Source of the DNA: an uncultured bacterium
Lineage (GTDB): Bacteria; Fidelibacterota; Marinisomatia; Marinisomatales; UBA1611
Direction of reading: 5' to 3'
Length of the DNA: 64,000 nt
Assembly (NCBI GenBank): GCA_965660855.1
Contig: CBFIBM010000003.1
Location: 90,909 to 154,908 of the forward strand
Below, piece by piece: positions 37,492 through 64,000 of the stretch (positions are counted from its first letter, which is position 1; each line of letters begins with the position of its first letter). A program made the translations under genes and the position numbers. The notes under the pieces are model-generated. The model was not told where the DNA came from. It did no database searches and worked only from the letters and a program-made list of their open reading frames with translations.

Positions 37492-37574
37492 GCCGCGGTG
37501 GTGGAATTGGTAGACACGCCAGATTTAGGATCTGGTGCACTTTGTGCGTGAAGGTTCGAGCCCTTTCCGCGGTA
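37492..37574 (+). tRNA. tRNA-Leu(TAG)
   Basis: GCCGCGGTGGTGGAATTGGTAGACACG CCAGA-TT-TAG-GA-TCTGG, long variable arm, GGTTCGAG T-loop; CCA not encoded. Confidence 0.97.
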
Positions 37575-37575
37575 C

Positions 37576-41029: not shown

Positions 41030-41159
41030 TTAGAATTCATTTCTATTTTATTGAAAATATTAAATAGTAGTTTACAATAGAAAGATTAGCCTTATTATAT
41101 TATATAGTATAATAATAATTCCTATTGCAATAGAAATTCTAGCGATAATTCGAATTAAG

Positions 41160-41633: not shown

Positions 41634-41677
41634 ATGAATCTTTAATAATATATATTGCACAAAATTTAAATATATAT

Positions 41678-41720
41678 AATTACGCCATGGCTACTCATAT
41701 TTATTAAAATACTACTCATT
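41678..41720 (-). promoter_or_regulatory. Phased GAGTAG/GCGTAA motif array, putative regulator binding site
   Basis: Minus strand reads AATGAGTAGTA-TTTTAATAAA-TATGAGTAGCC-ATGGCGTAATT; same motif as at 43582-43625. Confidence 0.6.
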
Positions 41721-41739
41721 TGTTTTTGTAAATTTCAAA

Positions 41740-43569
41740 ATGATAGATAATAAATTTTATACTTTAGTAATAATGTTTTTATTTAGTCAAGTAGTAATAT
41801 GCTCGACTGAAGAATTTGATGAAAAGCCAACCACAAGGAATCCTGATTTTGCATTAATAGATTCTTTAGTCGATTATAAATATGCACAACCTGAAAGAGC
41901 TATTACATTTGCAAGGACGGTCTTGCAAAGAAAGAAATATGCTACTGGAGGTTTTCCAAAGATCGAAAGCGCATTCTATAATCATTTAGGTGAAATTTAT
42001 CTTCGAATGAATCTACCTTCACAAGCTTTATCTTATTTTATTGAAGCAAAAAGGTTGCTCCCTAAGACTAAAACTCCATGGCTAGATGTTCAATTTGGAA
42101 ATGTCTATTACAATCAAGATATGATGATAAAGGCAAAAGAAGCTTATGGGAAAGCTCTTGATATTTTTTCTAAAACTAAAATTTCTGGAGATAGACTCGA
42201 TGGAAAAAAGACGGGTGGAAACTCCATTGCAGGAATTGCAACGTGTTATAGCAATCTTGGTAAGATAGAAATACAATTAAAAAATTATGAATCTGCATTA
42301 TCATATTTTGAATTAGCTTTGGAAATTAGAAAAGATTTTTATGATAATTTGGATAGCAATAGGGACATTCAATTTAACGTTTTAACGGGTGTACTGTACC
42401 AGTATTATTTGCTTGCAGAACTATATCATATTTGGGAAATGGATGATTTAGCTATGGAAAAAATTTCTTTAATTGATAGTATAGCTATTCCCATTTATAA
42501 TAAAAATAATCTGGATCCACTTCCTAGCCAAGATAAAGGGTTAAGGTTGATTTATCGTGTATTAGGTCTATCAAACGATATGAAAATAATTATTAAAACA
42601 AATGAAAAAAAATATAAACAAGCTAAACAAGCATCTATTTTAGCAAATATGTTTTTGAAAGATTGGCCTATTTATCTTTCTAGAAGCTATTCAAATAGTG
42701 CAAGGATGTATTTTGAGCAAGATAGTTTATATAAATCATTGGAACATATCGATGCAGGGATTCGGGTGTGTCAATTAAACGGTTTAGGCTTTGAAGAATT
42801 GGAACTCCTCAAATACAAAATGGAATTATTAGAAAAAAGCAATTTAAACAAAAGTGCAATTGATATTGCATCAAAAATATTAGATAAGAAGATCATTATT
42901 GAAAAGATGCAAATGTCTGATATGGTAGAGAGCGTTGAGATTAAATCTGAATTATACCAAAGTAGAAATGAGCTTTTAAAATCAAAAAGAAGACAAACCC
43001 TACTTCAGATTCTAATAGGTGTTTTAATATTAATTACTGGCTTAATTATAATTTCTTATAGAAATAAAAAAAGATATTCTGAGCAAATTGCAATTATCAA
43101 TGAGCAAGAAAATCAGATTACTCAAGTTGAATTGAAAAATAAAGAAGCTGAACTAGTTAATATCTCTACTTTTGCTCTATCAAAAAATGACCTTTTAATT
43201 AATATTATTAAAGAATTAGAATATCACATAACTCTCATAAATGATAAGGATGATCAAAAATCTTTAAAACCATTAAAAAAGAAAATTCAGAGCTTTATTG
43301 ATGATGGTATAGATTGGGAGGATTATAAACTTCAATTTTCTAATGTTTTTCCTAATTTTGTCGACTCATTGATAGCAAATAATCCAGATATTACAAATAA
43401 TGATATCAAGTTATGTTGTTATCTAAAGATGAATATGAATACAAAAGATATAGCGCAGCTTTTTGGCTTAACTGTCAGAGCCATAGAGAATAAACGATAT
43501 AGACTTAGGAAAAAGCTTTCATTAGAAAAAGATGTTAGTCTTATGTCCTTTATAAATAGCTTAAAATAG
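41740..43569 (+). CDS. Membrane-anchored TPR sensor with C-terminal LuxR-type HTH
   Basis: Signal peptide, TPR repeats (YNHLGEIY, YSNLG), single TM (ILIGVLILITGLIII), C-terminal KDIAQLFGLTVRAIENKRYRLRKKL. Confidence 0.9.
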   Translation: MIDNKFYTLVIMFLFSQVVICSTEEFDEKPTTRNPDFALIDSLVDYKYAQPERAITFARTVLQRKKYATGGFPKIESAFYNHLGEIYLRMNLPSQALSYFIEAKRLLPKTKTPWLDVQFGNVYYNQDMMIKAKEAYGKALDIFSKTKISGDRLDGKKTGGNSIAGIATCYSNLGKIEIQLKNYESALSYFELALEIRKDFYDNLDSNRDIQFNVLTGVLYQYYLLAELYHIWEMDDLAMEKISLIDSIAIPIYNKNNLDPLPSQDKGLRLIYRVLGLSNDMKIIIKTNEKKYKQAKQASILANMFLKDWPIYLSRSYSNSARMYFEQDSLYKSLEHIDAGIRVCQLNGLGFEELELLKYKMELLEKSNLNKSAIDIASKILDKKIIIEKMQMSDMVESVEIKSELYQSRNELLKSKRRQTLLQILIGVLILITGLIIISYRNKKRYSEQIAIINEQENQITQVELKNKEAELVNISTFALSKNDLLINIIKELEYHITLINDKDDQKSLKPLKKKIQSFIDDGIDWEDYKLQFSNVFPNFVDSLIANNPDITNNDIKLCCYLKMNMNTKDIAQLFGLTVRAIENKRYRLRKKLSLEKDVSLMSFINSLK

Positions 43570-43581
43570 CTATGTATTTAA

Positions 43582-43625
43582 TTTGAGTAGTTTTGGCGTA
43601 GTATTTATGTAGTATTGGAGTAAGG
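43582..43625 (+). promoter_or_regulatory. Four tandem 11-bp imperfect direct repeats upstream of the large operon
   Basis: TTTGAGTAGTT / TTGGCGTAGTA / TTTATGTAGTA / TTGGAGTAAGG; GTA core at 43587, 43598, 43609 and 43620. Confidence 0.7.
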
Positions 43626-43682
43626 CTTTTTGTAACTACTTATTCTTAATTTCTTCTAACTAAAAATGAGTTTTAATTTAAA

Positions 43683-45041
43683 ATGAAAGTAAAATATCTA
43701 ATTTTATTCGTCCTTTACTTACTCATCAGTTCCTGTGAGGATGTTGAAGTTGCATACCCTGGAAATAATCAATCTACCAGAGCTGTTGCTCCAAATGGTA
43801 CTGCTGACTGGTTAATTGCGCAAGTGAATGGCGTTGGGCAATTACCCGAAAATTCAGCTGCAGGGATTGATATAGCAACCTTGAATGCTGAAGATGAAAA
43901 TCCAGATGATGAGTTTTCTTATTCGATTGCAAGTCAGACTATTGGCAATACTTCAGGTGATTATTTCAGAATTGAGAAAGAAGAAGATGGAGATTTTAAA
44001 CTTGTTTTAAATAATAGTAGTATTAACTATGAATCTCTAAGCGGTGTAAAGGTAGTTACGATTAATATTTCAGTTGAGGATGATAGTCCTGATAAATTAA
44101 AAAGTGATTTTTCATTGGAAGTGGAAATAATTAATGTGAATGAGTCCCCTTATTTTATTAACCTAAGCTCAATTACCCCTTTCGCTGATGAATATGTTGA
44201 ATTTTCTTCTGGAAATTTAATTTGGGATGATATAGACGAAGGTGATAATCCAATTTTAAATACACAAGGTCCTGGCTGGTTAAATATAAGTAATGAAGGT
44301 TTGTTTAGTGGGTCACCCTCATCTTCAGATGTGGGTGTTAACTCATTTGTTTTGACCATTTCTGATGACGATAATCCACCGATCTCTGTAAGTGAGGAAG
44401 TAAATATTGAAGTAAGAGAGAATGTCGCTCCAATTTTTGAAAACGCGCCCTCATCACTATCAATTAAGGTAGGTTGTTATGATACAAATGAAAGCATTGT
44501 AAATCTAAATTGGCGAGATCCAAATAATGATGCTCCATATTTTTCTGGTAATGATTTGGTTTCATTTAGTTTTAATGAAAATATCTCCTGGTTAAATATT
44601 TCTGATGATGGAAATATATTTTGTGTTGATGCTCCTCAAAATACAGATGCGGCTGTTTCTGAAATTGAAATTACCATTGCTGACAATAGGCCGAGTAATC
44701 CAAAAAGCACAACAAAATCATTTGATGTTACAGTAATAGCAAATGATGCACCAAGTTTCACAAACCTTAATGGCTTTGCAGATGAAATGGATTCAGGTAC
44801 AGAATATATCTTTGAATTGGAATATGATGATCCAAATGACGATCTTCTCGCATTTGAATTGAAGTTTGCTATTGGTAATAATGTATTTGATTCTGATCAA
44901 TTAGGGTGGGTTAGTATTGATAATTCAGGAGAAATCACTCTAAGTCCAACATCGAGTAATGCTGGAGATTATACGATCAGTTTTATTATTTCAGATGAAT
45001 GCTTTGAAGTTTCAGAAGAAAAATCTTTTACAATTAGATAA
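43683..45041 (+). CDS. Lipoprotein with cadherin/putative-Ig repeats
   Basis: Lipobox LISSC; PEN, INYE, NVNESPYF, NDAPSF and WLNIS cadherin/Ig-type motifs. Confidence 0.85.
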   Translation: MKVKYLILFVLYLLISSCEDVEVAYPGNNQSTRAVAPNGTADWLIAQVNGVGQLPENSAAGIDIATLNAEDENPDDEFSYSIASQTIGNTSGDYFRIEKEEDGDFKLVLNNSSINYESLSGVKVVTINISVEDDSPDKLKSDFSLEVEIINVNESPYFINLSSITPFADEYVEFSSGNLIWDDIDEGDNPILNTQGPGWLNISNEGLFSGSPSSSDVGVNSFVLTISDDDNPPISVSEEVNIEVRENVAPIFENAPSSLSIKVGCYDTNESIVNLNWRDPNNDAPYFSGNDLVSFSFNENISWLNISDDGNIFCVDAPQNTDAAVSEIEITIADNRPSNPKSTTKSFDVTVIANDAPSFTNLNGFADEMDSGTEYIFELEYDDPNDDLLAFELKFAIGNNVFDSDQLGWVSIDNSGEITLSPTSSNAGDYTISFIISDECFEVSEEKSFTIR

Positions 45042-45061
45042 ATTAAAAAAAAGGAATTAAC

Positions 45062-45460
45062 ATGAAGTTGAGATCAGATATTAATGCAATGACCGCCCTT
45101 GTTTATGGAGGAGCAGCATTCTTACTTGTTATCGTAGGGTTTAGGTCTATTCTAGCAACATTAGGAGATCATGTTGGTGTGATGACTTACTTATCTATTG
45201 CTGCACTTGGTTTAGAATTTGTACTTTTAATTTTATACGCAAAGGCTATTTATAACTTGGGTCCAGATTCAGGTGAAAGTAAAGTCAGCGCTGGGGCAAG
45301 TGTTGCGAACATGGATAGTAAAGAGATATCAGAGTTAACCAAAGCAGTAATAAAAGTTGCTGAAATGGGCGAGGGTTTAGCAAATCTCTCAAATGGGAAA
45401 GTTCGTGATGAAGTGAAAAAAGAGGTTAATGATATTCTTTCGAAAGCAATTAAGAAATAG
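45062..45460 (+). CDS. Putative GldL/PorL-like motor subunit (2 TM plus short cytoplasmic tail)
   Basis: TM1 VYGGAAFLLVIVGFR; TM2 with intramembrane Glu (ALGLEFVLLILYA); AAGGA RBS; resemblance judged by eye. Confidence 0.62.
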   Translation: MKLRSDINAMTALVYGGAAFLLVIVGFRSILATLGDHVGVMTYLSIAALGLEFVLLILYAKAIYNLGPDSGESKVSAGASVANMDSKEISELTKAVIKVAEMGEGLANLSNGKVRDEVKKEVNDILSKAIKK

Positions 45461-45469
45461 GTCTATAAA

Positions 45470-46909
45470 ATGAAAAAAGTAGAAGTCTATTTTCTAATCA
45501 ATCTTGGTGCTATACTTAGCCTGTTTGCTATTGAAGGTGAGCTGTCTATTTATATGCAAAGACAAGATGATATTTTAAAGAATGTTGCTCAAGATAAGCT
45601 TCAAACGCTTGTTGAAATAAGCAATGTTGAATCAAATTATGATGATTCCGATTATTACAGGTTATTTTTCGATGTTGAAGGACAATATGAACAAGGTTCA
45701 ATCGAGTTTAATCCTAGTTTTACTACTCCAATTGTAGAGGTTGATGGCGACTCGATAAAAGTAGATGATTCATATGTATGGGAATTGGATTCTGTTAATA
45801 TCGAGCCTTATACAGAAGAGGGGGATAAAAATAGATATGTAGCTAAGGTCAAGCTTGCATCCATTGAGGATAACTATCTAAATCAACCCTTTGATATAAA
45901 CCTAGGTGTGAATTTCATTCCCGCTATTGACACTGTTACTTACGCAAAATGGACAAAGGCGTTTGGAGATTACACAGTTACAGACAAATTGTTGAAGATA
46001 ATCGATGATGAAGTTTCCTCAAAAGGAAGCTTTGAAATGGAGAGGGAATTTGACACCCCGGTAACACTGATTTATATGGATGGTCAGCAAGCAGAGTTTT
46101 TTGTTTTGTTTGATAAAGAAAAGTATACTGTGTTAAGAGGTTTGGATTGGGAGATTCCGTTCAGTATTGGTGGGGTGAATTCTGAAGCTGATTTTGATAT
46201 TGAGATATCAAGTGGCAAAGATTTAGTAAAAGAGTCTCAACCAGGGTTGCCAAGATCATTTATCAAAGGTAAAGGTACGAGTGATGGAACTGTTGAAATT
46301 GTTGGGCTGAGGAAAAGAGATAAAAAATCTAGTATTACTAAGGCTAAGATAGTAGTAGTGGATCCACAGTATAGTTCTCCAACTGAAGACAAAGAAATTT
46401 ACATTGGAGAGCAGTATGTTTTTGATAGCAGAGTTAAAGATGTAGACAGAGATAGAATTTCTGTGAAAATTTCTGGATCTGCGGTAAACTCAAAAACTTT
46501 TAACTCTTACGAAGCAAAATTAAAACCTAAAAGTCGAGGAAAAGTTAAATTCCAAACTTTTGTTGATGGGAAAGCTGTAAAAGGATTATTTCGTGAAGTT
46601 TCTGTAAAGAAAATTCCACCGCCTAAGCTTGAGTTTAAGCGTTTAGGAAAAGGATCAAATAATATGATGGTTACAGTTACAACATATGGAAATAATAATG
46701 GTAAAAAAGCTGTAGTCCCTCTCTCTGGTATTTATGGAAAACTAGACGAAGAGCAAGCTGAAAAACGGGTTGGAAATCGAAGAGTTGTTAAATACAGCTT
46801 TGAAATGGACGAGCCACAATTTGGAACAACCACTGAGATAAGAATAAAAGTTGTGGATAAATATAAAGCAGAAACTGTCTCAGACAATGAATTTGAATAT
46901 TATGATTAA
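45470..46909 (+). CDS. Putative GldM/PorM-like single-pass protein with large periplasmic Ig-like region
   Basis: N-terminal TM YFLINLGAILSLFAIEGE; beta-rich periplasmic part; VSVKKIPPP resembles the GldM FRVK.IP.P linker; directly follows the GldL-like gene. Confidence 0.55.
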   Translation: MKKVEVYFLINLGAILSLFAIEGELSIYMQRQDDILKNVAQDKLQTLVEISNVESNYDDSDYYRLFFDVEGQYEQGSIEFNPSFTTPIVEVDGDSIKVDDSYVWELDSVNIEPYTEEGDKNRYVAKVKLASIEDNYLNQPFDINLGVNFIPAIDTVTYAKWTKAFGDYTVTDKLLKIIDDEVSSKGSFEMEREFDTPVTLIYMDGQQAEFFVLFDKEKYTVLRGLDWEIPFSIGGVNSEADFDIEISSGKDLVKESQPGLPRSFIKGKGTSDGTVEIVGLRKRDKKSSITKAKIVVVDPQYSSPTEDKEIYIGEQYVFDSRVKDVDRDRISVKISGSAVNSKTFNSYEAKLKPKSRGKVKFQTFVDGKAVKGLFREVSVKKIPPPKLEFKRLGKGSNNMMVTVTTYGNNNGKKAVVPLSGIYGKLDEEQAEKRVGNRRVVKYSFEMDEPQFGTTTEIRIKVVDKYKAETVSDNEFEYYD

Positions 46910-48647
46910 AAAACACCATATTTCTACTCTCTTATTTTTAAGTAGCACTCTATTATTTGGTCAAAAATCAATCTACTGGGAAGTAGCTGATCCTGTTGTG
47001 AACAGCGAGTTCATCGAATCTTATATTAATAGATTGATTGAGGTTGATAAATTTGAGCAAAATACCATTCAAGCTTCTCATACAATCATTGTCCAAATGG
47101 ATATTGAAAATGATAAAATTAGTTTAGAAAAACTCAAAGCTAAAAATTATCAAATGGGAGAGTACCAATCTTTTGATATGGAAGAAATTGAAAAGATGGA
47201 TCCTGTCCAGATTAATACATTAATGTCGCGAGAGTACAAGTGGAAAGATGTAAGTCGAAGAGATTTGTCTGAGTTAGAAGCTTTTAGTACTGTAGATAAT
47301 GTATTTCAAGAGCGTAGTTTTAAAGATGCTAGAGATGCATTTTGGTGGTCGAATTCTCAAATAAGCGTCAGTACTGCTCAGAAGGTTTTTATTAGACAGA
47401 AAAGTAATAGTCTTGCATTTCGTTTGGAGAAGGGTTTTCTTGACCTTGGACTGTCAAGAGAATTGTCTGAAAATTTGATTTTAGGCATTTCAAATGATGT
47501 TGTGAGCTCATATCTCATTATACCTGGAGCAACTAATTCTACAGCTATGGGTATTGGGCATCCTTTAGAAGGAAATTTAGGCTTTGGCTTTAAGTTTGAC
47601 ACTCATACTCTTGGTGGTCAGGTTAACTATATGGATGTCGATGGTCAGGATTATGACTATTCAAAAGTTTTTAGCAGAAAACATTTGGTGATCCCATCAA
47701 GTAGTGGACTATTATATTGGAGCAATACTTTCCAAATTAATAGAAATGTTGATTCCAAGTATGGTAATAAAGTTAAAGATCAAAAAAAAGAAAAAGCCAA
47801 AGCAGAAAAAGCAATCTCGAAATCTAGAGAATGGAATACTGGATCAGACAAATTTAATGGAGTATTTCAGGTAATGGAAGAAGAGACTGTTACTTTTATT
47901 GTTGATAGAGATAATAAAGCACACAAGTTAGCAGAAAAGGGTAAAGAGTGGACGACAAAATCAGGAAGTGTTGTTAAAGCAGTTTTAACAAATAGAAACC
48001 CCAAAGAGATTACCCTGTTAAGAGCAAAGGATAATTTTAAAATTGTACTAAAATTAAGAGATCTATCCGAAGAGGATCAATCTTTTGTTGAAAGTTTAAA
48101 GTGGGATGGTAAAAAAACAAAAACTCTATCTATTGAGCAACTAAATCCCTCCGATCAACAGCTTATTAGAGCAGCGACAGGGACTGTGAAGGCAAGAAGC
48201 GGTAAAGGTCGTGAGCTAAAAGTCAGTGAACCATTTGCTTCAATGCGGTTGAAAGCAGGTCTTGCATTTACTCAATTTGTTCACGCTAGAGTTTTTGAAG
48301 ATAATTTAGTATCGGTAATTGATCGTACGTCTGGCTCTAATTCATTAGGGTTTTATGCAAAAGTTGAGGGAGTGACAGATAGTAAAAGCTCCAAAGGGTA
48401 TATCCAAGTAAATGTAGCAGGTAATGGATTTAAGGCATACGGGTTGGGTTTAGAGCATAATGTATGGAAAATGGTTAATTTAGGAGTGGATTTGACTCTT
48501 TACCCTGATAACAGTTTTATCGAATTTAAAAATGATCGAAATAATCCAGAAGATAAATGGAGATGGTATCCAGGGAGTCGCCCAGATGAAAATGGAAAGG
48601 GCGGAGGAACTCTTTTCTTTTCTCCTTATATTACTGTGAACTTCTAA
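46902..48647 (+). CDS. Putative outer membrane beta-barrel protein with inserted SHD1-like domains
   Basis: Signal peptide from ATG 46902; amphipathic strands; C-terminal PYITVNF; EWTTKSG...LRDLSEEDQSFV SHD1-like motif. Confidence 0.68.
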   Translation: MIKKHHISTLLFLSSTLLFGQKSIYWEVADPVVNSEFIESYINRLIEVDKFEQNTIQASHTIIVQMDIENDKISLEKLKAKNYQMGEYQSFDMEEIEKMDPVQINTLMSREYKWKDVSRRDLSELEAFSTVDNVFQERSFKDARDAFWWSNSQISVSTAQKVFIRQKSNSLAFRLEKGFLDLGLSRELSENLILGISNDVVSSYLIIPGATNSTAMGIGHPLEGNLGFGFKFDTHTLGGQVNYMDVDGQDYDYSKVFSRKHLVIPSSSGLLYWSNTFQINRNVDSKYGNKVKDQKKEKAKAEKAISKSREWNTGSDKFNGVFQVMEEETVTFIVDRDNKAHKLAEKGKEWTTKSGSVVKAVLTNRNPKEITLLRAKDNFKIVLKLRDLSEEDQSFVESLKWDGKKTKTLSIEQLNPSDQQLIRAATGTVKARSGKGRELKVSEPFASMRLKAGLAFTQFVHARVFEDNLVSVIDRTSGSNSLGFYAKVEGVTDSKSSKGYIQVNVAGNGFKAYGLGLEHNVWKMVNLGVDLTLYPDNSFIEFKNDRNNPEDKWRWYPGSRPDENGKGGGTLFFSPYITVNF

Positions 48648-48660
48648 AAACGGAACTTAT

Positions 48661-50979
48661 ATGACTCTAGTATTTAAATATTTTACAATTTTAGCTTTTT
48701 CATCAACGCTTATTTTTAGTCAAAATGAGTTAAAATTAAAAAAAGACAAAGCGCAGGTTACCGAGGATGAAAGCATTAAAATAGATGTCTTAAAAAATGA
48801 CGGAATTAAAGATAAAAGTAACCTAATAATTAAGATTGAAAAACAAGCTCAAAAAGGAGTTGCCGTACTATCTGGGAAAATGATCGAGTATACCCCCAAT
48901 AGTAATGAAAGTGGATCAGATAGTTTTACATACTCAGTTGATATTGGTACTGGAGCTGGTACAGCTGAAGTCTCTGTCAAAATTAAATCAGTAAATGATG
49001 AACCCACCGGACTTAGTCTTTCTAGTAAGACAATTAAAGAAAATAAACCTGAAGGGACATTAATTGGTAAGCTAATTGTTGATGATCCAGATATGAATGA
49101 TACTTTCAACTTTGGTCTATCTAGAGATAGTAAAGCAGATTTTCGAATTGATGGTGAAAAGTTACTTTCAAAAAGATCATTTGATTATGAGGAGCAAAGT
49201 AAATATAATTTATCAATACAAGTATCAGACGCAGCAGGTGAATCTAATGTTTTTGATATAGCAGTGAATATTGAAAATGAAAATGAAGCTCCAAAACTCA
49301 TTGGGGATAAAGACTTAAACATTAATCACCCGGAAGATGCGGGAAAAATTGTGGCAAGAATTCAAGTAGAAGACCCTGATTCTGACCAATCGGGTCTTAA
49401 ATACAAGCTTACTAAGAGTCTAGATAAGGAACATTTTAAAATCACTCGTAGTGGCGATATCTCATTTTTAAAAGAGCCGGATTTTGAAAACCCAAAAGAT
49501 AAAAATAAAAATAATACTTATAATGTTTCATACAAAGTAACAGATAGTAAAGACCCTTCCCTTTCCATTGAAGGAGAAGTTACTATTAATCTTCTTGATG
49601 CTGAGGAAACAGAAGTTAAGGCTTTGGACAAAAGGAAATTTATTGCTTGGTCTGTAGATCATCAACCATATCACATTTTGATGGAAGAAGCCGTAGAGGA
49701 TTATTTGAAATTAAAATATTCTGATGATTCTATTGATGAGGCAGTTGATGATGGATATGGTGCTAGTATTCAGGAACTAAAGCCAACAGATCAAATTATT
49801 ATTGTTCAGCAAAAAGGTAATAATAGTGAAATTTATGAAATTTGGTATGGTAACGGATTAGACTATACCATAATCGATAGAGAAAAAGTGGATTGGATTT
49901 TTAGTCAGGATATACAATCTGTTCTTGTCACAAAAGATCAATATCTTAATAGTGATTCAGAGACAGTATTTCATAAAAGTGAAAGTGATAGATTGATGGC
50001 TAGCTATGGAAATGAATTTTCTGTCTGGCACTCCAATAATTTCAAAATGTCACTTGCTTCCTTTTCTATGAGATCGAATTTATTGCAATACGCATCTAAT
50101 ATGCGTGTAGGAAATAAATTAATAGGAATTCCAGGTGAGCTTGGTGCAGGGGCAGAATTTGGTATTGCGACACAACGATCAGAATTTGGTTTTCGATTGC
50201 CAATTTCATTTGATTTTGCAACATCTAATTCTGATGGTATTGATTTACCAGAAGCTGATAATTTAGGGTTGTATGCACGTGGAAATATTGAAAATTTATT
50301 TTCAACTAATACTGATTTTCATGGATTGATTGGGTTTTCTTTTTATTCACCAAGTGTTGGTAATGTTTTAAGTTCCCCTAAAGATTTAGAAAGTGACAGT
50401 ACAAAGTGGGGGGCTATAAACGACTCCACTGAAAATATTAATATTTTAGATAGCTATGCTTTATTTGGTGCGACTGTTCAAGTTCCAGTAAATGCACCTT
50501 TTATTGGTCGCTTAACCGCAACACCGGGTATTCATTACATAAAGATAGCCCACCGTTTAAAAGATAAGCGCTATTCAGCAGATGATGACTTGTATGAAAG
50601 GCTTTATTATAATCAAATGTTTGAGCAAAATGATAGTACTTTGACTTTCAATTCAGAAAAATTAAATGATGAAAATGAATCTTTTACATCTCTATCATCT
50701 TTTTACTTACGATTTGATCTACTAGGGAAAATAGGGGAAAAGCCTAACGTAATTGAGAGATTATCATTCTTGGATTTCATTAAAATTTCCAATGTCCCTT
50801 TTTATGAGGTTTCATTACAGTTTATTCCCGGTTTTAATACAATCAGCACACTGAATGTGAATTTCTCAGACCAATTTGGCATGTCTTTGACACGTTTGTC
50901 TTCCGATGATGCATTAAAAGGAAATTGGATGCCAGAATCAAAACTTTGGTTTGGATTTAATTATCGTGCTAATTTTTAA
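48661..50979 (+). CDS. Ig/cadherin-repeat protein with putative C-terminal beta-barrel
   Basis: Signal peptide; IDVLKND/YTP/DSFTY Ig domain; FDYE, PDFENP and NEAP cadherin motifs; C-terminal WFGFNYRANF. Confidence 0.75.
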   Translation: MTLVFKYFTILAFSSTLIFSQNELKLKKDKAQVTEDESIKIDVLKNDGIKDKSNLIIKIEKQAQKGVAVLSGKMIEYTPNSNESGSDSFTYSVDIGTGAGTAEVSVKIKSVNDEPTGLSLSSKTIKENKPEGTLIGKLIVDDPDMNDTFNFGLSRDSKADFRIDGEKLLSKRSFDYEEQSKYNLSIQVSDAAGESNVFDIAVNIENENEAPKLIGDKDLNINHPEDAGKIVARIQVEDPDSDQSGLKYKLTKSLDKEHFKITRSGDISFLKEPDFENPKDKNKNNTYNVSYKVTDSKDPSLSIEGEVTINLLDAEETEVKALDKRKFIAWSVDHQPYHILMEEAVEDYLKLKYSDDSIDEAVDDGYGASIQELKPTDQIIIVQQKGNNSEIYEIWYGNGLDYTIIDREKVDWIFSQDIQSVLVTKDQYLNSDSETVFHKSESDRLMASYGNEFSVWHSNNFKMSLASFSMRSNLLQYASNMRVGNKLIGIPGELGAGAEFGIATQRSEFGFRLPISFDFATSNSDGIDLPEADNLGLYARGNIENLFSTNTDFHGLIGFSFYSPSVGNVLSSPKDLESDSTKWGAINDSTENINILDSYALFGATVQVPVNAPFIGRLTATPGIHYIKIAHRLKDKRYSADDDLYERLYYNQMFEQNDSTLTFNSEKLNDENESFTSLSSFYLRFDLLGKIGEKPNVIERLSFLDFIKISNVPFYEVSLQFIPGFNTISTLNVNFSDQFGMSLTRLSSDDALKGNWMPESKLWFGFNYRANF

Positions 50980-51050
50980 ATCCTAGATTCTTTATTTGAG
51001 GACTAAAGTAAAGAGAATTTTTTTTAATTAAAACCTGGACAAAGAACTAA

Positions 51051-53723: not shown

Positions 53724-53771
53724 TTAAATTTTTAATTCATTTATTATGAAACACTTCTTAAGGAGTTCATT

Positions 53772-56700: not shown

Positions 56701-58916
56701 ATGTAGATGGAGTTACCTCCAACATCCAGACTCAGTTAGATGCAAAGGGAACAGGAATGGTTAGCTCTTTATCAGACTTGAGTGTTACTTCCACAGCAAC
56801 AGAGTTAAATCTTTTAGATGGGGTAACTTCTACAACATCAGAGCTAAATATTTTAGATGGGGTAACCGCCACAGCAGCAGAACTTAATTATGTAGATGGA
56901 GTTACCTCCAACATCCAGACTCAGTTAGATGCAAAGGGAACAGGAACGGTTAGCTCTTTATCAGACTTGAGTGTTACTTCCACAGCAACAGAGTTAAATC
57001 TTTTAGATGGTGTATCTGGATTAGTTCAAGGAGACCTTACAAAGTTAGCAGCGGTTGACGCCACAGCAGCAGAACTGAATTATGTGGATGGAGTTACCTC
57101 CAACATTCAGACTCAACTAGATGCGAAGGGAACAGGAACGGTTAGCTCTTTATCCGACTTGAGTATTACCTCCACAGCGACAGAGTTAAATATATTAGAT
57201 GGTGTTACTTCTACTACTGGAGAGTTAAATATTCTTGATGGGGTAACCGCCACAGCAGCAGAGCTTAATTATGTAGATGGAGTTACCTCCAACATCCAGA
57301 CTCAGTTAGATGCGAAGGGTACAGGAACAGTTAGCTCTTTATCCGACTTGAGTGTTACTTCCACAGCGACAGAGTTAAATATATTAGATGGTGTTACTTC
57401 TACTACTGGAGAGTTAAATATTCTTGATGGGGTAACCGCCACAGCAGCAGAGCTTAATTATGTAGATGGAGTTACCTCCAACATCCAGACTCAGTTAGAT
57501 GCGAAATCTTCTATAACAGGACTTGATGGTCTTACGGATGTTAAATCAGGTGGAAGTAATTTTTCAAATTCGATGATTGTTGGACATCAAACAACAGGTA
57601 CACTTAACAATGCAGATGAAAATATTGGACTAGGTGTTGGATCCCTTGAATCGCTTACCTCTGGTGATAGAAATACTGCTATCGGGAAAGATGCAATGAA
57701 TAGTAACACTGATGGTAATTATAACACTAGTTCTGGATATCAAAGCTTATATGTCAATACTACTGGTAGTTTTAATCTGGCATCAGGAAATTCAGCATTG
57801 GGGCTAAATATTGATGGAGATTCAAACACGGGTTTAGGGCATAGAGCATTAAATAGTAATACAAGTGGAGACTTAAATATTGGAGTTGGTCGAAGATCAT
57901 TATATTCAACAACCACAAGTAATTATAATTCAGCAATTGGCTCTTATGCTTTAGAAGATGCCAACAGGACAGCAGATACGGATGGTTATAATACTGCACT
58001 TGGGTATAAAGCTGGTAACACAGGAACTAACGACGTAACGACAGGGAATAAGAATACTCTATTAGGAGCAAATACTGCCTCTTCAGCCGCAGCAGGAACC
58101 AATCAGACGGTTATTGGTTACGGTGCGTCCGGTACAGCGAATAATAGTGTTACGATTGGTAATAGTGATGTAACAGCATGGTATCCAGGTTCAGATAATA
58201 CTGCAGATTTAGGTAGTAGCTCAGTTGAATTCAAAGATTTGTATATAGATGGTACTGCAAACTTAGATGCAGTTGATATTGATGGAGGTGCGATTGATGG
58301 TGCTGCTATAGGAGCAAATTCAGCATCAACGGGAGTATTCACAACCGTTACAGCAAGTACTTCTTTGGATGTTACAGGTTCAGCAGGTGTGATATTAGAG
58401 AATGATGAAACTATTACAAATTCAAGTGATGGAACGGTTTTGGTTACAGCAACTACCACTTCTTTAAGTGGCGACTTAACTGTCACAGGAAATGACATAA
58501 CTTTTGGTAACGGAGAGACAATTTCTAACTCGACAGATGGAACGGTAGTTGTTACAGCAACTACCATTGAATTGTCCGGGAAAACTGACTTTGGTGATAA
58601 TGCAATTACGGGTTATGGAGCAGATTTACAAACATTATCTGGAACTACAAAAACTCTTGCTGCAACTGACAATGGAACTGTGATTGTATGTTCTAGTGGT
58701 TCCGCGACAACGATTACTGTCGCTTCTGGTGCAAGTTTACCTGCTGGATTTAATTGTATGATTGTTCAAAGTGGCGCAGGCCAGGTGACATTTAGTGGAT
58801 CAGGTACTACCTTAAATGCGAGGAATGGTTTAAAGACTGCAGGACAATATGCAATGATGACATTAGTTCATCTTGGAAGTAATGTTTTTGTTATTTCAGG
58901 GGATACGACTCTTTAG
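53772..58916 (+). CDS. Signal-peptide-bearing fibre adhesin with phage-tail-fibre-like repeats
   Basis: AAGGAG RBS; VPRLLSYQGLL N-domain; GGTGAS..ARENLGL and ELNYVDGVTSNIQTQLD repeats; NTA.G..AL beta-roll repeats; C-terminal GFNCMIVQSGAGQVTF domain. Confidence 0.82.
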   Translation: MNKLLLIFVLFTYVLNGQKYKTNNQSLFNSKNKINTAETLSSTVPRLLSYQGLLTKTDGKAIKDGSIEVTFRLYTSLEEGVHFWEEVQNVVIEDGILTAVLGKIIPIDIVPDASFLEVEINGTVLSPRQEMTSSFYSIISDTSKYSQGGNYLDLDGLPDLNIFARKDTLSNYTLIDSLNPVALSGDYLDLENVPDLSEVLQSDTLDLYVMIDSLNSYVLQSSLSIVAFSNDYSDLNNIPDLNQYATKDTLTNFISEDTLSFYALNTELGSIALQDTNNVNITGGSISGVSDISVADGGTGASDIATARENLGLEIGTDVQGYDADLADLADGSLSASKVQFLENISSDVQEQINNLGLNSLMDLGVVADSSELNFVDGVTSNIQTQLDNKQEINSNLTSIVNLDQTDGNFIVSDGNNWTVENGADARASLNLGSMSTQQSDNVTISGGRVTGILDIAIADGGTGASDIATARENLGLQIGADIQGYDADLADISSLSQAEGNIIVSNGSNWTAESGSDARESLGLSIGSDIQGYDADLEDLADGTLSSSKIENNEYFITSSGNANEVWTSDGSGAGTWATSTNTLTGAGSTIDTEDLSASQAVVTDSDGKIAVSDVTVTELNYVDGVTSSIQAQLDAKQLADSDLDDLAVLPQSNGNIIVSDGSNWTAESGSDARESLGLSIGSDVQGYDADLTDLADGTLSASKVENNEYFITSPGNAGEVWISDGSGAGEWGLSAGITGAASTVDTEDLTGKRTLISNIDGKIAISDITSQELGYLDDVSSNVQTQLDGKQPLNSNLTDLVGLTQSDGNFIISDGVNWTVEKGADARASLGLGSLSTQESSAVAITGGSIAGIADITISDGGTGASDIATARENLGLEIGTDIQGYDADLADLADGTLSASKVENNEYFITSSGSANEVWTSDGSGAGTWATSTNALTGAGSTIDTENLSASVVVVTDSNGKIAVSDVTAAELNYVDGVTSNIQTQLDAKGTGMVSSLSDLSVTSTATELNLLDGVTSTTSELNILDGVTATAAELNYVDGVTSNIQTQLDAKGTGTVSSLSDLSVTSTATELNLLDGVSGLVQGDLTKLAAVDATAAELNYVDGVTSNIQTQLDAKGTGTVSSLSDLSITSTATELNILDGVTSTTGELNILDGVTATAAELNYVDGVTSNIQTQLDAKGTGTVSSLSDLSVTSTATELNILDGVTSTTGELNILDGVTATAAELNYVDGVTSNIQTQLDAKSSITGLDGLTDVKSGGSNFSNSMIVGHQTTGTLNNADENIGLGVGSLESLTSGDRNTAIGKDAMNSNTDGNYNTSSGYQSLYVNTTGSFNLASGNSALGLNIDGDSNTGLGHRALNSNTSGDLNIGVGRRSLYSTTTSNYNSAIGSYALEDANRTADTDGYNTALGYKAGNTGTNDVTTGNKNTLLGANTASSAAAGTNQTVIGYGASGTANNSVTIGNSDVTAWYPGSDNTADLGSSSVEFKDLYIDGTANLDAVDIDGGAIDGAAIGANSASTGVFTTVTASTSLDVTGSAGVILENDETITNSSDGTVLVTATTTSLSGDLTVTGNDITFGNGETISNSTDGTVVVTATTIELSGKTDFGDNAITGYGADLQTLSGTTKTLAATDNGTVIVCSSGSATTITVASGASLPAGFNCMIVQSGAGQVTFSGSGTTLNARNGLKTAGQYAMMTLVHLGSNVFVISGDTTL
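56682..57505 (+). repeat. In-frame tandem repeat, ~189-bp unit, four full copies plus one partial
   Basis: ACAGCAGCAGA(A/G)CT(T/G)AATTATGT unit starts at 56682, 56871, 57063, 57252 and 57441. Confidence 0.92.
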
Positions 58917-58924
58917 GAAGAAAT

Positions 58925-60745
58925 ATGTACTTTTTCTTTAAAAATCATATAATAAAGTTTCTTTTCACCTCTATAATTTTATTTGCTCAAGATTATGATT
59001 TGAAAACATTTCAATTTTCTCTTACCAATGAAATAATGGAGTCACAAGATTTAAAACTAAAAGGTTCGATTAGTTCAAACCTTTTTAGCACTAGTAGCAG
59101 CGATTCTATTTCTCTAAAAGGCGGGGTTATAAGTTCAGCATTAGGCTTATATTCAGAACCACCCAAACTTATTACCTTTTTTCCTGATACAATAACGCAA
59201 TCTGATCCTAATGTTGCACGTGCAATTGCGACTGATTTAAATGGAATACAAAGTACAAATTTGTATATACAAATTGGTGGAAGTAAGAGAACTTTAAAAC
59301 TTCCTATGGCGGTGGTTAATGATTCTATTTTTGAAGTACATATCCCAGAAAGCCTAATGACTGTTCGAAATTTTAGAACATATTTTGAGAGTGTTGATAG
59401 TATGGACTATTCCAGTTCTAGCGATTATAATACCCCATATTTAACCATTCCACAAAATGGTTTAAATATGGAATCCAGATTTAGTTTTTACCCAGATGGA
59501 ATACTATCTGAAAAATGGCGCATGTTTTCTTGGCCAGGCAAACTACTTAATAATCGTATATCAACTTCGAATCTCAAAAATGATGGATATGTGATTTACT
59601 ACTACAATCCTCATACAAAAAAAAGGATTAAACCAGATAGTTTAGAAACAGGCACTGCATATTGGATTCATCACGAATTTAATAAACCTATCATTTTCCA
59701 AAATTCTGATACAACAGCATCCGCGTTACCATTAGATGATTATACTATTTTATTAGAACCTGGTTGGAATATGATTGGTAGTCCATTTTCTTTTAAAACA
59801 TCTTTTAACTATGACAAAAATAAAATTTCAGGTCTCTATCAATTTGGTGATTCCCAATCTGATGGATGGGCTGGTCCTTTAGAAATATTTGAACCATGGG
59901 CTGGATATGCAATCTATAATTATTCAGAAGATATTGACAGTCTTATAATAAAACCATTCCCTGATGATTCCTCTCATCAGGCTGGTAGATCTATGTCTTT
60001 AGAATGGGAAATAGCTTTGCGAGTCGAAAGTGAGCGTTACTTTGATCGAACAGGAAGAATAGGTAGAATAGAGAGCGCTTTAAATGAAAAAGACGGCTTT
60101 GATACACCAAAGTTACCTTCGATGGATAACTTCCTTAGCATATCGATGGATATTGATGGGAATGGAGATTTTAATCATAGTGCAGATATACGATCAATAG
60201 ATAATATGAATGGAATATGGAATATCCGCCTATTAGGGGAAAGTAGTTCAGAACCTATAACGTTATTTGGTGAAAGTATGGTCCCCTTACCACAAGGTTT
60301 AATTGTTTCAGTCCTGGATGTTTCAAAACGTCACATTATTGATAATTTTTTATCGAATGAATACACGATAGAACAAATGACTAATCAAATTTATGATCTT
60401 AAATTTGTTATTGGAGACGAAGTATTTGTTCAATTAACTCTGATGGATTTATTAAGACAAATTCCTGAAAAATTTTCTATAAGTCAAAATTATCCAAATC
60501 CTTTTAATCCACAAACAAAAATGGATTTTTCAGTAGCACGAACAGGAAAGGTCCAAATAGTTATTTATAATCTTTTAGGCCAGAAGGTTAAAACATTAGT
60601 GAACAAATCCTTGAACTATGGTTATCATTCAGTTGTTTGGAACGGGTTAGATGAAATAGGTCAACCCGTATCTTCGGGGGTTTATTTTTCCGAGCTTCGA
60701 GCCAATGGGTTTAGAGAATCAAAGAAAATGTTACTGTTAAAATAA
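58925..60745 (+). CDS. Exported protein with T9SS-A/FlgD-Ig-type C-terminal domain
   Basis: Signal peptide; WRMFSWP and GWNMIGSPF repeats; QNYPNPFNP...KKMLLLK. Confidence 0.82.
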   Translation: MYFFFKNHIIKFLFTSIILFAQDYDLKTFQFSLTNEIMESQDLKLKGSISSNLFSTSSSDSISLKGGVISSALGLYSEPPKLITFFPDTITQSDPNVARAIATDLNGIQSTNLYIQIGGSKRTLKLPMAVVNDSIFEVHIPESLMTVRNFRTYFESVDSMDYSSSSDYNTPYLTIPQNGLNMESRFSFYPDGILSEKWRMFSWPGKLLNNRISTSNLKNDGYVIYYYNPHTKKRIKPDSLETGTAYWIHHEFNKPIIFQNSDTTASALPLDDYTILLEPGWNMIGSPFSFKTSFNYDKNKISGLYQFGDSQSDGWAGPLEIFEPWAGYAIYNYSEDIDSLIIKPFPDDSSHQAGRSMSLEWEIALRVESERYFDRTGRIGRIESALNEKDGFDTPKLPSMDNFLSISMDIDGNGDFNHSADIRSIDNMNGIWNIRLLGESSSEPITLFGESMVPLPQGLIVSVLDVSKRHIIDNFLSNEYTIEQMTNQIYDLKFVIGDEVFVQLTLMDLLRQIPEKFSISQNYPNPFNPQTKMDFSVARTGKVQIVIYNLLGQKVKTLVNKSLNYGYHSVVWNGLDEIGQPVSSGVYFSELRANGFRESKKMLLLK

Positions 60746-60746
60746 A

Positions 60747-63700
60747 ATGAACTTTTTAAAAAAAGTATTAAAGATCACAATGTTTGTAACGTTTTCTTTT
60801 GGACAATTCGCGTTACCTTCTTTTCAGGCAGTTTCTAACGGTGATAATGTGGGCCCTAGAATTACGATTACTGCATCCGACGGTAGTAATACAGTGCTTA
60901 GTGGTTCCACTACAAATGATAATACTCTTACCCTCACATTCACTTGTAATGAGAATACCACAAATTTCGCTATTGGAGATGTTATTTTATCAGGAGGGAG
61001 CCTATCTTCCTTTTCAGGGTCTGGAACAACCTATTCTGCAAGTTTATCTCCCAATAGTGAAAGATCAGTAAGAGTTTCTATTCCTGCAGGGTCGTTTACG
61101 GATGGAAGAAGTAACCTTGCTTTTGGTTCGATTCCCTTTTTATGGACTTATGACAGTTCGGCACCTTTTTTTACTTCTTATCCAGTTCTGGCCTCTGATA
61201 ATACGACTGTTACAATAAAGTTTAACGAACTCACATATAATACAAGTAATGGGAGTGGAGCTCTTGAGGTTGGTGATTTTTCTTTTACCCTTACGGTACC
61301 TTTGGGTGGAACTCCCGCTACGTTAAACAGCCCAACCCCAACTAGCATTTCAAAAGCAGCTCCATCATTTACAACTACTGTACTCCCGTACTCAATGGAT
61401 GGTCCAGTCTCTGTAACAGTTTTTGATCTTGATTTAGATAATGATATTGATATTTTAGTACCATTAAATCCTGGTTCTAAACTTCTTTGGTACACGAATA
61501 ATGGATCACAAAGCTTTTCAGAAAATATAATAGATAATTCTGTAAATAATCCAAGAGAAATATGGCCTGTAGATCTAGATCTTGATGGGGACATTGACTT
61601 AGTAGTTCCAATTGAGGGGGGAGATGAGCTAGCATGGTATGAGAATGATGGATCACAAGGTTTTACAAAAAGATCAATCGATACTGGTAATAATGGTAGA
61701 GCAGTTGCTGTTGCAGATATTGATGGTGACAATGATTTGGATATCACATTTACTACATACTCATCGTATACTTTTTCATGGTATGAAAACGATGGATTAC
61801 AAAATTTTACAAAAAATAGTATTAATAGTTTTAATGTTCGAGATCCAGTTATAATAGATCTTGATGAGGATGGAGATATTGATTTTGTATCAGAAATAGA
61901 TGATGGCAGTGATAAAATAGTATGGTATGAGAATGATGGATCACAAAGTTTTACTCAAAATACTATTGATGAAATTGATGGAGGACATCTAGATGTTGTG
62001 GATCTTGATGAAGATGGAGATTATGATTTAGTATTTGCAGAATATTATAATCATTTATTACTATGGTACGAAAATGATGGTTCAGAAAACTTTACGAAAA
62101 GAACTATCGATGACAGCGGAGTGACAAATGTATGGGATGTTGAAGCAGGAGATATTGATGGTGATGGGGATATTGATATTGTTGCATTAACCTCAACTAA
62201 TAATAGTATTGCGGATGATAAAATCATTTGGTATGCGAATAACGGCTCAGAGTTATTTACAGAGTATACTATAGATACGGATTTAAATCATCCCTATAGA
62301 TTAAAATTAAAAGATATTGATGGCGATGTAGATTTAGATATTGTAGCTGGATCAAGAGAAGGCGATCAGGTAATTTGGTATGAAAATGTAGATGGGGGAT
62401 ATGTTTTAGGTTTATCACTATCAGGTACGGCAGCTGGATCAGAGGCTTTGACTGTAAACCCATTAAGCAGCTCTGTATATGACTTTGGAGGAAATAGTGC
62501 TTCAAATTCACAATCCTATAACACATTAAATCTAAATGATAAGACAGGTCCTACGATGACGATCACCGCTACGAATAGTAGCAGTTCATCTGTAAGCGAT
62601 GGTTCTACAACTAATGATAATCCCCTAACAATAACCTTTACTAGTAGTGAAAGTACAACCAATTTTGCCGTAGCAGATGTAACGGTATCAGGTGGAAGTC
62701 TTACTTCATTTAGTGGCAGCGGTACTATATATACGGCGACATTTACTCCCTCATCCGATGGAGCAACTACTATTGATGTAGCAGGAAGTACTTTTACGGA
62801 TGCTTCTTCGAACAATAATTCTGCCGCATCACAATTTAATTGGACTTATGATGGGACAGTTCCAACTATAACTGGTAATTCTCTTGCTGCTGATAATAGC
62901 ACTATCTCCGTAACGTTTAGCGAAGCTGTTTATAATACATCTTCAGGATCAGGTTCACTTGAAACCACTGATCTTACATTATCAAGTAGTGGTGGTAACG
63001 CATCTTTAAGTAGTTCAACACCTTCAAGCATATCTGCAAGCGGAAATACATATACACTAGGAATATCCCTATCTGGTACTGCAAATGGTAGTGAGACATT
63101 AATAGTAAATCCAATTTCAAATAGTATATATGACGCCGCAGGAAATGCAGCAAGCGGTTCTCAAAGCAATAATTCCGTTTCCTTAAATGCGGTAGTTTCT
63201 AACTATGTTTTAGACTTAAATGGATCAAATGAAGCAGCCTATGTTGGAGATAATTCTGATTTTGAAACTACGGATTGGTCGATTCAAGTATGGGTGGATC
63301 CAAATAGTCTTCCGAGTTCTGGAAATGAAGAATGGTTTGTAAATAAGAACAGAGTCTATAGAATTGGATTAAGTAACTCAAGTGGTACTACGAAGATCAT
63401 TGGTGATCATAGAAGTGGAGGTTCGTATGAAACTATCGAGGGAACAACATTATCTGACGCAAGTGGTGGTTGGTATCATGTCATTTTTACTTTTAATGAT
63501 TCTGCAGATGACCTAAAACTTTATGTGAATGGTAGCTTAGTGGGATATAAGTTAAATTATTCAGGAAGTACAGTAAATCAAAATAGTGAATTCTCCATAG
63601 GTCGAAGACATGATACATCCTCAGGATATTTTGATGGTAAGATTGACGAGGTAGCTTATTGGAACACCGAACTAAGTGCTAATGCAATTTCCGCATTATA

Positions 63701-63872
63701 TAATAGTGGAAATACCTTATCTGCATCCACTAATTCAGGTAATTATACTAGTTCAGGAAACCTTGTCCTTTACTATCAATTTCAAGAAAATTTAAATGAC
63801 TCTGAAGGGAGTTTTAATTTAACTGGGAGGAATATTAGTTCAAGCGATTATACCGCTGAAACAATTGATTAA
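60747..63872 (+). CDS. Adhesin-like protein: Ig-like repeats, FG-GAP/VCBS propeller and C-terminal LamG-like domain
   Basis: TFTxxExTTNF Ig repeats; about seven DxDxDGDxD...WYENDG repeats; WYHV/LYVNG/GKIDEVAYWN LamG motifs. Confidence 0.88.
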   Translation: MNFLKKVLKITMFVTFSFGQFALPSFQAVSNGDNVGPRITITASDGSNTVLSGSTTNDNTLTLTFTCNENTTNFAIGDVILSGGSLSSFSGSGTTYSASLSPNSERSVRVSIPAGSFTDGRSNLAFGSIPFLWTYDSSAPFFTSYPVLASDNTTVTIKFNELTYNTSNGSGALEVGDFSFTLTVPLGGTPATLNSPTPTSISKAAPSFTTTVLPYSMDGPVSVTVFDLDLDNDIDILVPLNPGSKLLWYTNNGSQSFSENIIDNSVNNPREIWPVDLDLDGDIDLVVPIEGGDELAWYENDGSQGFTKRSIDTGNNGRAVAVADIDGDNDLDITFTTYSSYTFSWYENDGLQNFTKNSINSFNVRDPVIIDLDEDGDIDFVSEIDDGSDKIVWYENDGSQSFTQNTIDEIDGGHLDVVDLDEDGDYDLVFAEYYNHLLLWYENDGSENFTKRTIDDSGVTNVWDVEAGDIDGDGDIDIVALTSTNNSIADDKIIWYANNGSELFTEYTIDTDLNHPYRLKLKDIDGDVDLDIVAGSREGDQVIWYENVDGGYVLGLSLSGTAAGSEALTVNPLSSSVYDFGGNSASNSQSYNTLNLNDKTGPTMTITATNSSSSSVSDGSTTNDNPLTITFTSSESTTNFAVADVTVSGGSLTSFSGSGTIYTATFTPSSDGATTIDVAGSTFTDASSNNNSAASQFNWTYDGTVPTITGNSLAADNSTISVTFSEAVYNTSSGSGSLETTDLTLSSSGGNASLSSSTPSSISASGNTYTLGISLSGTANGSETLIVNPISNSIYDAAGNAASGSQSNNSVSLNAVVSNYVLDLNGSNEAAYVGDNSDFETTDWSIQVWVDPNSLPSSGNEEWFVNKNRVYRIGLSNSSGTTKIIGDHRSGGSYETIEGTTLSDASGGWYHVIFTFNDSADDLKLYVNGSLVGYKLNYSGSTVNQNSEFSIGRRHDTSSGYFDGKIDEVAYWNTELSANAISALYNSGNTLSASTNSGNYTSSGNLVLYYQFQENLNDSEGSFNLTGRNISSSDYTAETID

Positions 63873-63875
63873 AAT

Positions 63876-64000
63876 ATGAAAAATATATTTTTTATTTCTT
63901 ATGCATTCATAGTGATACTTATCTTTTTTGGTTGTGAAGATGATGACACTAGCTCAGAGGATTGTGCAGGAATTACAGATGGAAACAGTGTTTGTGGTTG
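63876..64000 (+). CDS. Partial lipoprotein, truncated by window end
   Basis: Read by hand: MKNIFFISYAFIVILIFFGC-EDDDTSSEDCAGITDGNSVCG...; lipobox FFGC; 3 nt after the previous stop. Confidence 0.7.
   Translation, partial: MKNIFFISYAFIVILIFFGCEDDDTSSEDCAGITDGNSVCG

Follow-up and report, generated by a model that had tools for sequence, protein, structure and literature searches.

Four adjacent genes, termed here L, M, B1 and B2, occupy positions 45062 to 50979 of a 64,000-nucleotide stretch of DNA from an uncultured bacterium of the Marinisomatota (assembly GCA_965660855.1, contig CBFIBM010000003.1, positions 90,909 to 154,908 of the forward strand; this whole stretch is called the window), and it is these four genes, not the whole ten-gene run in which they stand, that form the conserved unit. 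Our reading, to which we assign a probability of roughly 45%, is that L-M-B1-B2 encodes a stand-alone, proton-driven motor of the GldL/GldM type that would work directly on two paralogous barrels, most likely holding or moving adhesive surface proteins. The original prediction had described a motor-like L/M pair joined to two barrels, and the genetic tie between them was borne out by fixed linkage in 62 loci. The core genes of the window are as follows.

45062..45460, + strand: core gene L, 132 aa, a pair of membrane helices, short helical tail, GldL-like (hydrophobic segments, conserved residues)
45470..46909, + strand: core gene M, 479 aa, single-pass, four tandem beta-sandwich domains, GldM-like rod (AlphaFold model)
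46887..48647, + strand: core gene B1, signal peptide, N-domain of ~90 aa, conserved helix, predicted 14-strand outer-membrane barrel, terminal Phe (model)
47736..48230, + strand: insert of B1 with an SHD1-fold domain, lineage-specific, likely on the periplasmic side (fold match; strand parity)
48661..50979, + strand: core gene B2, B1 paralogue, carrying here at its N-terminus an additional Big_9 and two cadherin domains (up to ~49611) (hhalign)

Conservation and linkage of the cassette

A GTDB-wide scan with M yielded 62 loci, for which flanks of 8 kb were read and a gene was counted only in loci with room for it. L was located upstream of M in 61 of 61 loci (60 by script and one, L131, by hand, the open reading frame (ORF) filter having dropped L), with B1 downstream of M in 58/58 and B2 in 53/53. 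This linkage persisted down to 26-28% identity and included one genome titled KSB1, and the named relatives of the cassette proteins belonged to Candidatus Neomarinimicrobiota (Marinisomatota/Fidelibacterota). M was detected in 16 of 41 close genomes and in 28 of 251 genomes drawn across Marinisomatota; these two samples and the GTDB-wide one overlap, and the kin within them are not independent. Profiles applied to the same 251 genomes returned positives for M in 28, L in 28 and B1 in 27, with 26 common to all, and two of the three discordant cases lay at contig ends. No B1 without M was found among the 251 genomes, and the majority of the 62 loci carried the bare four genes. M was absent from the plasmid collection searched, its metagenome loci (n = 80) were all close relatives with 76-100% identity, and a quick M tree displayed long branches.

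Individual loci revealed variations on this arrangement. Genome G259, from the window's own family, carries a cassette copy of 27% identity (L075:681-2063) set among other genes, with a PD40/M23/OmpA protein next in line; this very divergent copy may have been acquired by transfer or be an ancient paralogue. Two cassette copies are present in G114. In one clade the cassette comes after a conserved run including a ParA/MinD-type ATPase (L068:4551-8501). TonB_C proteins adjoin it as well, upstream in one clade (L072:5076-5966), and a large TonB_C/Cache/MORN protein lies downstream in two loci (L029:15486-19823; L027:16041-19997). A 72-aa L-like ORF (L177:1480-1698) in G032, a 97% complete genome, has Gln for the conserved Glu and Ser for Arg; no M was found beside it or elsewhere in that genome, and it appears to be a decayed or repurposed copy.

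The core, together with the lipoprotein gene preceding L, was present in RNA libraries (of the 22 runs, 13 are registered as RNA). One run gave an 8,024-nt contig that spanned 43671-51674, and a 5,473-nt contig from another study spanned 43725-49175, although these contigs do not establish strand, level or a single transcript.

L and M compared with GldL and GldM, and the two barrels

L contains two hydrophobic segments (residues 9-27 and 40-58, with a putative orientation) and a tail of 60-200 aa across homologues. In 31 rows extending down to 27% identity, Y15 and E52 were each retained in 31/31, as was R or K at position 28 (31/31). Published work on GldLM (10.1101/2020.05.11.089193) treats GldL E49 and GldM Y17 as invariant residues, describes strong conservation of GldL Y13 and GldM R9, and names K27 and H30 among the important positions; the conservation of the motor residues across species is the subject of another report (10.1101/2022.01.28.478170). 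Measured by spacing against these numbers, the basic residue and the Glu follow the Tyr by 14 and 36 residues in GldL and by 13 and 37 in L, which is within one or two residues. The motif counts for M were drawn from the 43 of 54 rows with an intact start: position 3 was K/R in 32/43, position 11 was Y in 28/43 and N in 15/43 with a spacing of eight between the K/R and the Y/N, and position 7 was Y in all 43. The AlphaFold model of M, built from 54 sequences (pLDDT 85.9, pTM 0.50), predicted a helix over residues 2-45 followed by four beta domains, the first of which contains a helical hairpin in the model. Since GldM is described as one helix and four domains (PMC9127263), the two proteins would be alike as single-pass rods with four periplasmic domains. 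The likeness to GldL/GldM (PorL/PorM), a 5:2 proton motor that serves gliding and type IX secretion in Bacteroidota, extends to the gene order, L then M, and to a two-helix L with a Tyr, a basic residue and a Glu. Unlike the GldL/GldM system, no gldK lies upstream and no gldN downstream of L-M; two integral barrels are found instead, and where gldKLMN has GldK and GldN, the core has a cadherin lipoprotein and a barrel as neighbours.

Family assignments were sparse. In the Atlas, the only named neighbour of L was GldL_N (0.78), and M had GldM_3rd/4th as neighbours (0.80), both of which fall under the 0.9 bar and serve as leads only. L, M and B1 of the window gave no Pfam or NCBIfam match at E 0.1, profile scans gave no MotA/ExbB-type match for L, and a search at E 1 through 7997 candidates 484-2000 aa long found no extended or fused form of L, though this is weak evidence. 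Three fold searches with M returned generic immunoglobulin (Ig) domains, GldM/PorM not being among the best 50 matches listed, and a search of 1.84 billion representatives with M produced 102 matches, with the GldM Pfam domain in 0 of the 30 scanned. Filamin-repeat and other long weak matches were excluded from the M alignments as chance Ig matches. L and M thus resemble GldLM by anatomy, yet they are not members by family profile, and we consider that together they probably constitute a divergent ion motor of the GldLM type.

The model of B1, built from 35 sequences (pLDDT 80.6), comprised an N-domain, a conserved helix and a barrel, with residues 93-119 unresolved. Its fold matches were Omp33 (Z 12.8, root-mean-square deviation (rmsd) 3.1, 169 aligned), a FadL homologue (Z 11.9, rmsd 3.9, 210 aligned) and OmpG (Z 11.8), and it also matched FadL-like subunits of the Bacteroidota beta-barrel assembly machinery (9n2d_B, 9hjm_F, 9hj3_F) at Z 10-12. 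Identity to the FadL/OmpG-type barrels was 7-13% with TM-scores of at most 0.19 of the query, and Foldseek agreed weakly (best E 3e-4). A signal peptide, an even number of strands (14, counted by hand from DSSP) and a terminal aromatic residue (F in 52/55) led us to predict that B1 is an outer-membrane beta-barrel. Long and short loops alternate, which assigns the insert of 165 residues to the side with the short turns, likely the periplasmic one. The conserved helix at mature residues 114-127 has invariant E, R, K, R, D, F, W and W. The insert matched the SHD1 domain of Sla1 (2hbp; Z 8.2, rmsd 2.0, 57 aligned, 30% identity), and the form with the insert was present in 24 loci and the short form in 31. 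The fold model therefore supported both the barrel and the SHD1 domain that had been claimed for this gene, although the window protein itself lacks Pfam support. In yeast, SHD1 is reported to bind NPFX(1,2)D motifs (PMC2199253). It may be speculated that a periplasmic SHD1 of B1 reads the C-terminal domain (CTD) of type IX cargo; the insert is missing from 31/55 B1. In the window genome, 69 proteins contain [YF]PNPFN within their last 120 residues.

B2 was aligned with B1 by hhalign (probability 95.7, E 9.5e-9, 220 columns), so that the two are paralogues, and B2 is a putative barrel by this paralogy. Its terminal residue was F in 31/53, and cadherin domains were present in 9/20 aligned members, with a long form in 22 loci, a short form in 30 and a truncated form in 1. 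The B2 cadherin domains and the B1 insert are additions to the core. The barrels of the cassette differ from the FadL/OmpG type in the extra N-domain, the lineage-specific SHD1 insert of B1, the cadherin fusion of B2 and the lack of a family profile match. A TonB-C fold for the N-domains of B1 and B2 was rejected, the hhalign probabilities of 0.43 and 0.11 falling within the range of 30 column shuffles (the TonB_C comparison alignment had 26 rows, one a wrong-frame translation). The PorV profile NF033709 had 12 matches in the genome, none of them on C3, the contig of the window, and B1 and B2 were unmatched.

The adjoining genes and type IX secretion

The genes around the core are listed below; T9SS denotes the type IX secretion system, and fractions are loci with room for the gene.

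41160..41660, - strand: divergent, small winged helix-turn-helix (HTH) protein that travels with the sensor (Pfam HTH below cut-off; adjoins the sensor in relatives)
41740..43569, + strand: accessory neighbour, TPR - membrane helix - HTH sensor/regulator (near core in 18/48 loci)
43683..45041, + strand: accessory, cadherin/Ig-repeat lipoprotein (Pfam He_PIG, Big_9, Cadherin; just upstream of L in 25/55 loci)
51051..53723, + strand: separate module, NHL repeats plus a C-terminal membrane helix (downstream of B2 in 13/45 loci)
53772..58916, + strand: separate module, repetitive fibre-like protein of 1714 aa lacking a T9SS CTD (in 10/37 loci)
58925..60745, + strand: separate module, 606-aa T9SS type A cargo, possibly a fibre adaptor (TIGR04183 above cut-off)
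60747..63872, + strand: separate module, Big_12/FG-GAP/LamG adhesin-like protein without CTD, mosaic among relatives (domain matches)
63876..64000, + strand: lipoprotein start, cut by the contig end (read from sequence)

Nine complete plus-strand ORFs run from 43683 to 63872, and a tenth begins with ATG at 63876, with an FFGC that we take to be lipobox-like and then an acidic run, 41 codons before the contig ends; because the window ends where contig C3 ends, the gene cluster is truncated. The gaps along the run are 20, 9, -23, 13, 71, 48, 8, 1 and 3 nt. A terminator scan of 40900-54000 gave 3 matches against 5.1 in shuffles, none of them between the run's genes; counts of promoters, terminators and operators were at shuffle level, and no convincing repeat preceded 43683. 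The description given in the original prediction was accurate in these respects, namely ten co-directional genes from 43683, gaps of at most 71 nt and, over the part scanned, no obvious terminator, as it was for the cadherin/He_PIG lipoprotein, the Big_9 and cadherin domains of B2, the NHL repeats, the T9SS type A CTD and the FG-GAP/Big_12/LamG protein. Its transmembrane TPR-LuxR sensor was recovered in part, since the TPRs (E 5e-13) and one strong membrane helix (420-438) were confirmed and the C-terminal HTH was weak (Sigma70_r4_2, E 0.0018), so that the LuxR label applies by resemblance only. The NHL label also held, and a C-terminal hydrophobic helix (860-878) makes membrane anchoring of this protein more likely than its release as an adhesin. 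In the RNA runs, the sensor and the downstream adhesin genes were represented by short contigs only, and the contigs cannot rank genes.

The sensor, lipoprotein, NHL and fibre genes are lineage-specific, and the adhesin genes form a module separate from the core. The cadherin lipoprotein is tied to the core in the window's family, and 30/55 loci are without it. The fibre, which has a weak Bdello_MAT_N match (E 3.3e-5, below cut-off), was detected by its N-terminal region in 17/41 genomes, 4 of which had no M match (G011, 71% complete; G013, 95%; G023, 95%; G040, 94%), and this region was not found in three M-bearing genomes of the 41. The window genome contains a second membrane-anchor and fibre pair (C65:2-2635), in which a short NHL paralogue precedes the second fibre gene, and a second full-length copy of the CTD protein, of 603 aa (C52:1881-3692); full-length homologues of the latter also occur in G023, which shows no M match. 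In L018 the fibre, CTD and LamG genes are on the strand opposite B2. There may be a repeated three-part fibre module, in which a fibre without its own CTD is carried by the CTD protein. Synteny across relatives had been set beforehand as the test of a single regulated apparatus of more than 20 kb, and it showed that adhesins and sensor occur independently of the L/M/barrel core (fractions listed above), with the fibre found also without M; that part of the original prediction was not supported.

Two more type A CTD cargoes lie upstream in the window, a choice-of-anchor J protein (34117-37467, +), which is syntenic in many family members, and a beta-helix protein (37649-41029, -). A tRNA-Leu gene (37492-37575, +) stands between these two CTD genes, ~4 kb ahead of the sensor, and a tRNA-Arg gene (2379-2453, -) lies near the window start.

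The window genome encodes the type IX translocon away from the cassette: SprA is divided between two contigs, and 8 PorV-family loci and 78 type A CTD matches score over cut-off, one of the latter being the CTD protein of the window. SprA was present in 249/251 Marinisomatota genomes, including genomes of ~1 Mb, and in 166/166 good ones, and the cassette in ~28/251 (~11%). With SprA almost everywhere and the cassette in so few genomes, the latter cannot be the general motor or energiser of type IX secretion in the phylum. A wide M profile matched 0/5 single-contig SprA genomes in a run that contained no M-positive genome. The GldL, GldM and GldN profiles had no match in the window genome (GldN without a control match), and the best GldK match, an FGE-sulfatase domain on a different contig, reached 78 bits where the cut-off is 350. 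The canonical GldM and GldL_N profiles matched 0/251 Marinisomatota genomes, without a positive control match; NZ_OY725768.1, a Bacteroidota record tried as the GldM control, has sprA and no gldM. SprF/PorP carriers and type B CTD adhesins had no match in the 84% complete window genome, again with no positive control match. As an observation in its own right, the combination of SprA in nearly all genomes with empty GldM and GldL_N profiles describes, for an abundant marine phylum, a type IX translocon without a recognised energy chain. A review allows that T9SS may occur in other phyla of the Fibrobacteres-Chlorobi-Bacteroidetes group, and Marinisomatota does not appear in the list given there (PMC11285876); one cultured member of the phylum is called non-motile (PMC11652737).

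Proposed mechanism and competing explanations

The mechanism that we propose starts from the observation that L, M, B1 and B2 occur together in fixed order and that L retains a Tyr and a Glu without exception, together with a basic residue. M is predicted to be a membrane helix bearing a series of four Ig-like domains; for B1 the prediction is an N-terminal domain and a barrel of 14 strands. By analogy with GldLM, several L subunits (five in GldLM) would ring two M helices, protons would cycle on L Glu52 opposite a basic residue close to position 3 of M, and the dimer of M would probably turn or rock. The tip of M may then contact the periplasmic parts of B1 and B2, the barrels replacing the GldKN track as the output; if there is a motor, such direct coupling is somewhat favoured, because of the gene linkage and the absence of GldK and GldN. 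In the weakest step, the barrels might carry surface adhesive domains, which here would be the cadherin lipoprotein and the cadherin domains that B2 has gained. The downstream fibre, CTD and FG-GAP genes would be ordinary type IX cargo that settled beside the cassette in one sub-lineage. ExbBD-TonB and TolQRA are likewise ion motors acting across the periplasm on outer-membrane proteins, and the cassette differs from them in having no separate TonB transducer in the core and no MotA/ExbB-type L.

Several observations weigh against this reading. The match of L and M to the motor residues of GldL and GldM was made by residue spacing to published numbers and not by sequence alignment; GldL/GldM profiles gave no score against L and M, lax thresholds included, and sequence searches of the PDB with four alignments returned no GldL or GldM chain. 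L has no counterpart of GldL His30 three residues past the basic residue, a His37 being present in only 15/31 rows. The window M has K at position 3 and N where GldM has its invariant Tyr17, and position 5 is E/D in 43/43 rows, an extra acidic residue relative to GldM. The first domain of M is predicted to be mostly beta, whereas domain D1 of GldM is helical. In Flavobacterium the motor acts through a GldK-based track with disulfide-linked barrels (PMC12635249), and the cassette encodes no track protein, nor does B1 have any cysteine for coupling of that type. As for the adhesive function, 30/53 B2 are without cadherin domains and 30/55 loci without the cadherin lipoprotein, so that adhesion may not be the ancestral job, and the B2 cadherin domains may be on either side of the membrane, which keeps their surface display putative.

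The same absence of profile and PDB matches, the Atlas scores under the reliability bar and the Asn at the GldM Tyr17 position in 15/43 M rows would suit a system with no motor, in which the proteins form a static tether between the inner and outer membranes and the likeness to GldLM is a convergence of generic parts (two helices and an Ig stalk). We consider this improbable, since a buried Glu, a Tyr and a basic residue invariant over 31 L rows to 27% identity are hard to explain in a tether, two adjacent genes, ordered as in GldLM, each point independently to one half of that motor, and in the L-like gene that stands without M both the Glu and the Arg are gone. An energised channel resembling the Ton and Tol systems, in which the motor shifts the pre-barrel helix to gate uptake or export of small molecules or lipids without any role in adhesion, would account for the best fold matches of B1 to channels (FadL, OmpG, CymA, TodX), for the invariant residues of that helix and for the bare four genes of most loci. 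It would also suit the one clade in which a TonB_C gene directly precedes the cassette and the two loci in which one follows it. The N-domains of B1 and B2 have no TonB_C similarity beyond shuffles, however, and no conserved permease, SusD-like protein or hydrolase was seen next to the core in the loci read, where most neighbours are unannotated, making such a channel a poor candidate.

An accessory role in type IX secretion has a different basis. PorV has the FadL fold, which B1 resembles, and the genome has SprA, 8 PorV-family loci and 78 CTD matches, yet no GldL/M/N profile match; B1 and B2 could then be PorV/SprF-like carriers of special cargo, pulled from the SprA translocon by L/M, and in L070 and L131 the core is bordered by CTD genes. 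The energy-requiring step in Flavobacterium is the release of the carrier-cargo from the translocon, for which the motor is needed (PMC10994853). This explanation is unlikely in view of the distributions, with SprA in 249/251 genomes against ~28 for the cassette and no match of the wide M profile in the five single-contig SprA genomes, and in view of the silence of the PorV profile on contig C3 and the occurrence of the fibre without M. A single inducible apparatus exceeding 20 kb, with the sensor in control and the motor exporting or moving the adhesins encoded downstream, retains very little probability: its tight co-directional spacing is real and the long arrangement recurs in part of the family (NHL in 13 loci, fibre in 10), but loci with room lack the sensor (30/48), NHL (32/45) and fibre (27/37), the fibre and CTD proteins are duplicated elsewhere in the genome and found in genomes without M, and the fibre-CTD-LamG genes are inverted in L018. 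A proton-driven L-M motor acting on its own two barrels remains the reading that we prefer.

No report of the cassette, or of type IX secretion in Marinisomatota, was found in the literature searched, which included few subscription journals and excluded supplements, and no name was given there to this combination, as the original prediction had supposed. GldLM has been described as specific to Bacteroidota and as always acting through a GldK/GldN track; a divergent L-M joined to two uncharacterised barrels would show that the motor is reusable with another output. It is conceivable, though doubtful, that L-M-B1-B2 represents a second, track-less output of GldLM outside Bacteroidota, with a rotor gripping its own barrel pair and moving adhesins, and that SprA of nearly all Marinisomatota works without a GldLM-type motor. 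If true, this would separate motor from translocon in evolution, contrary to a proposed origin of type IX export within the gliding machinery (PMC12635249). A system of four genes is small enough to express and image, and with SprA near-universal and most genomes devoid of both canonical GldL/M and the cassette, what powers the release step in this phylum becomes a direct, testable question.

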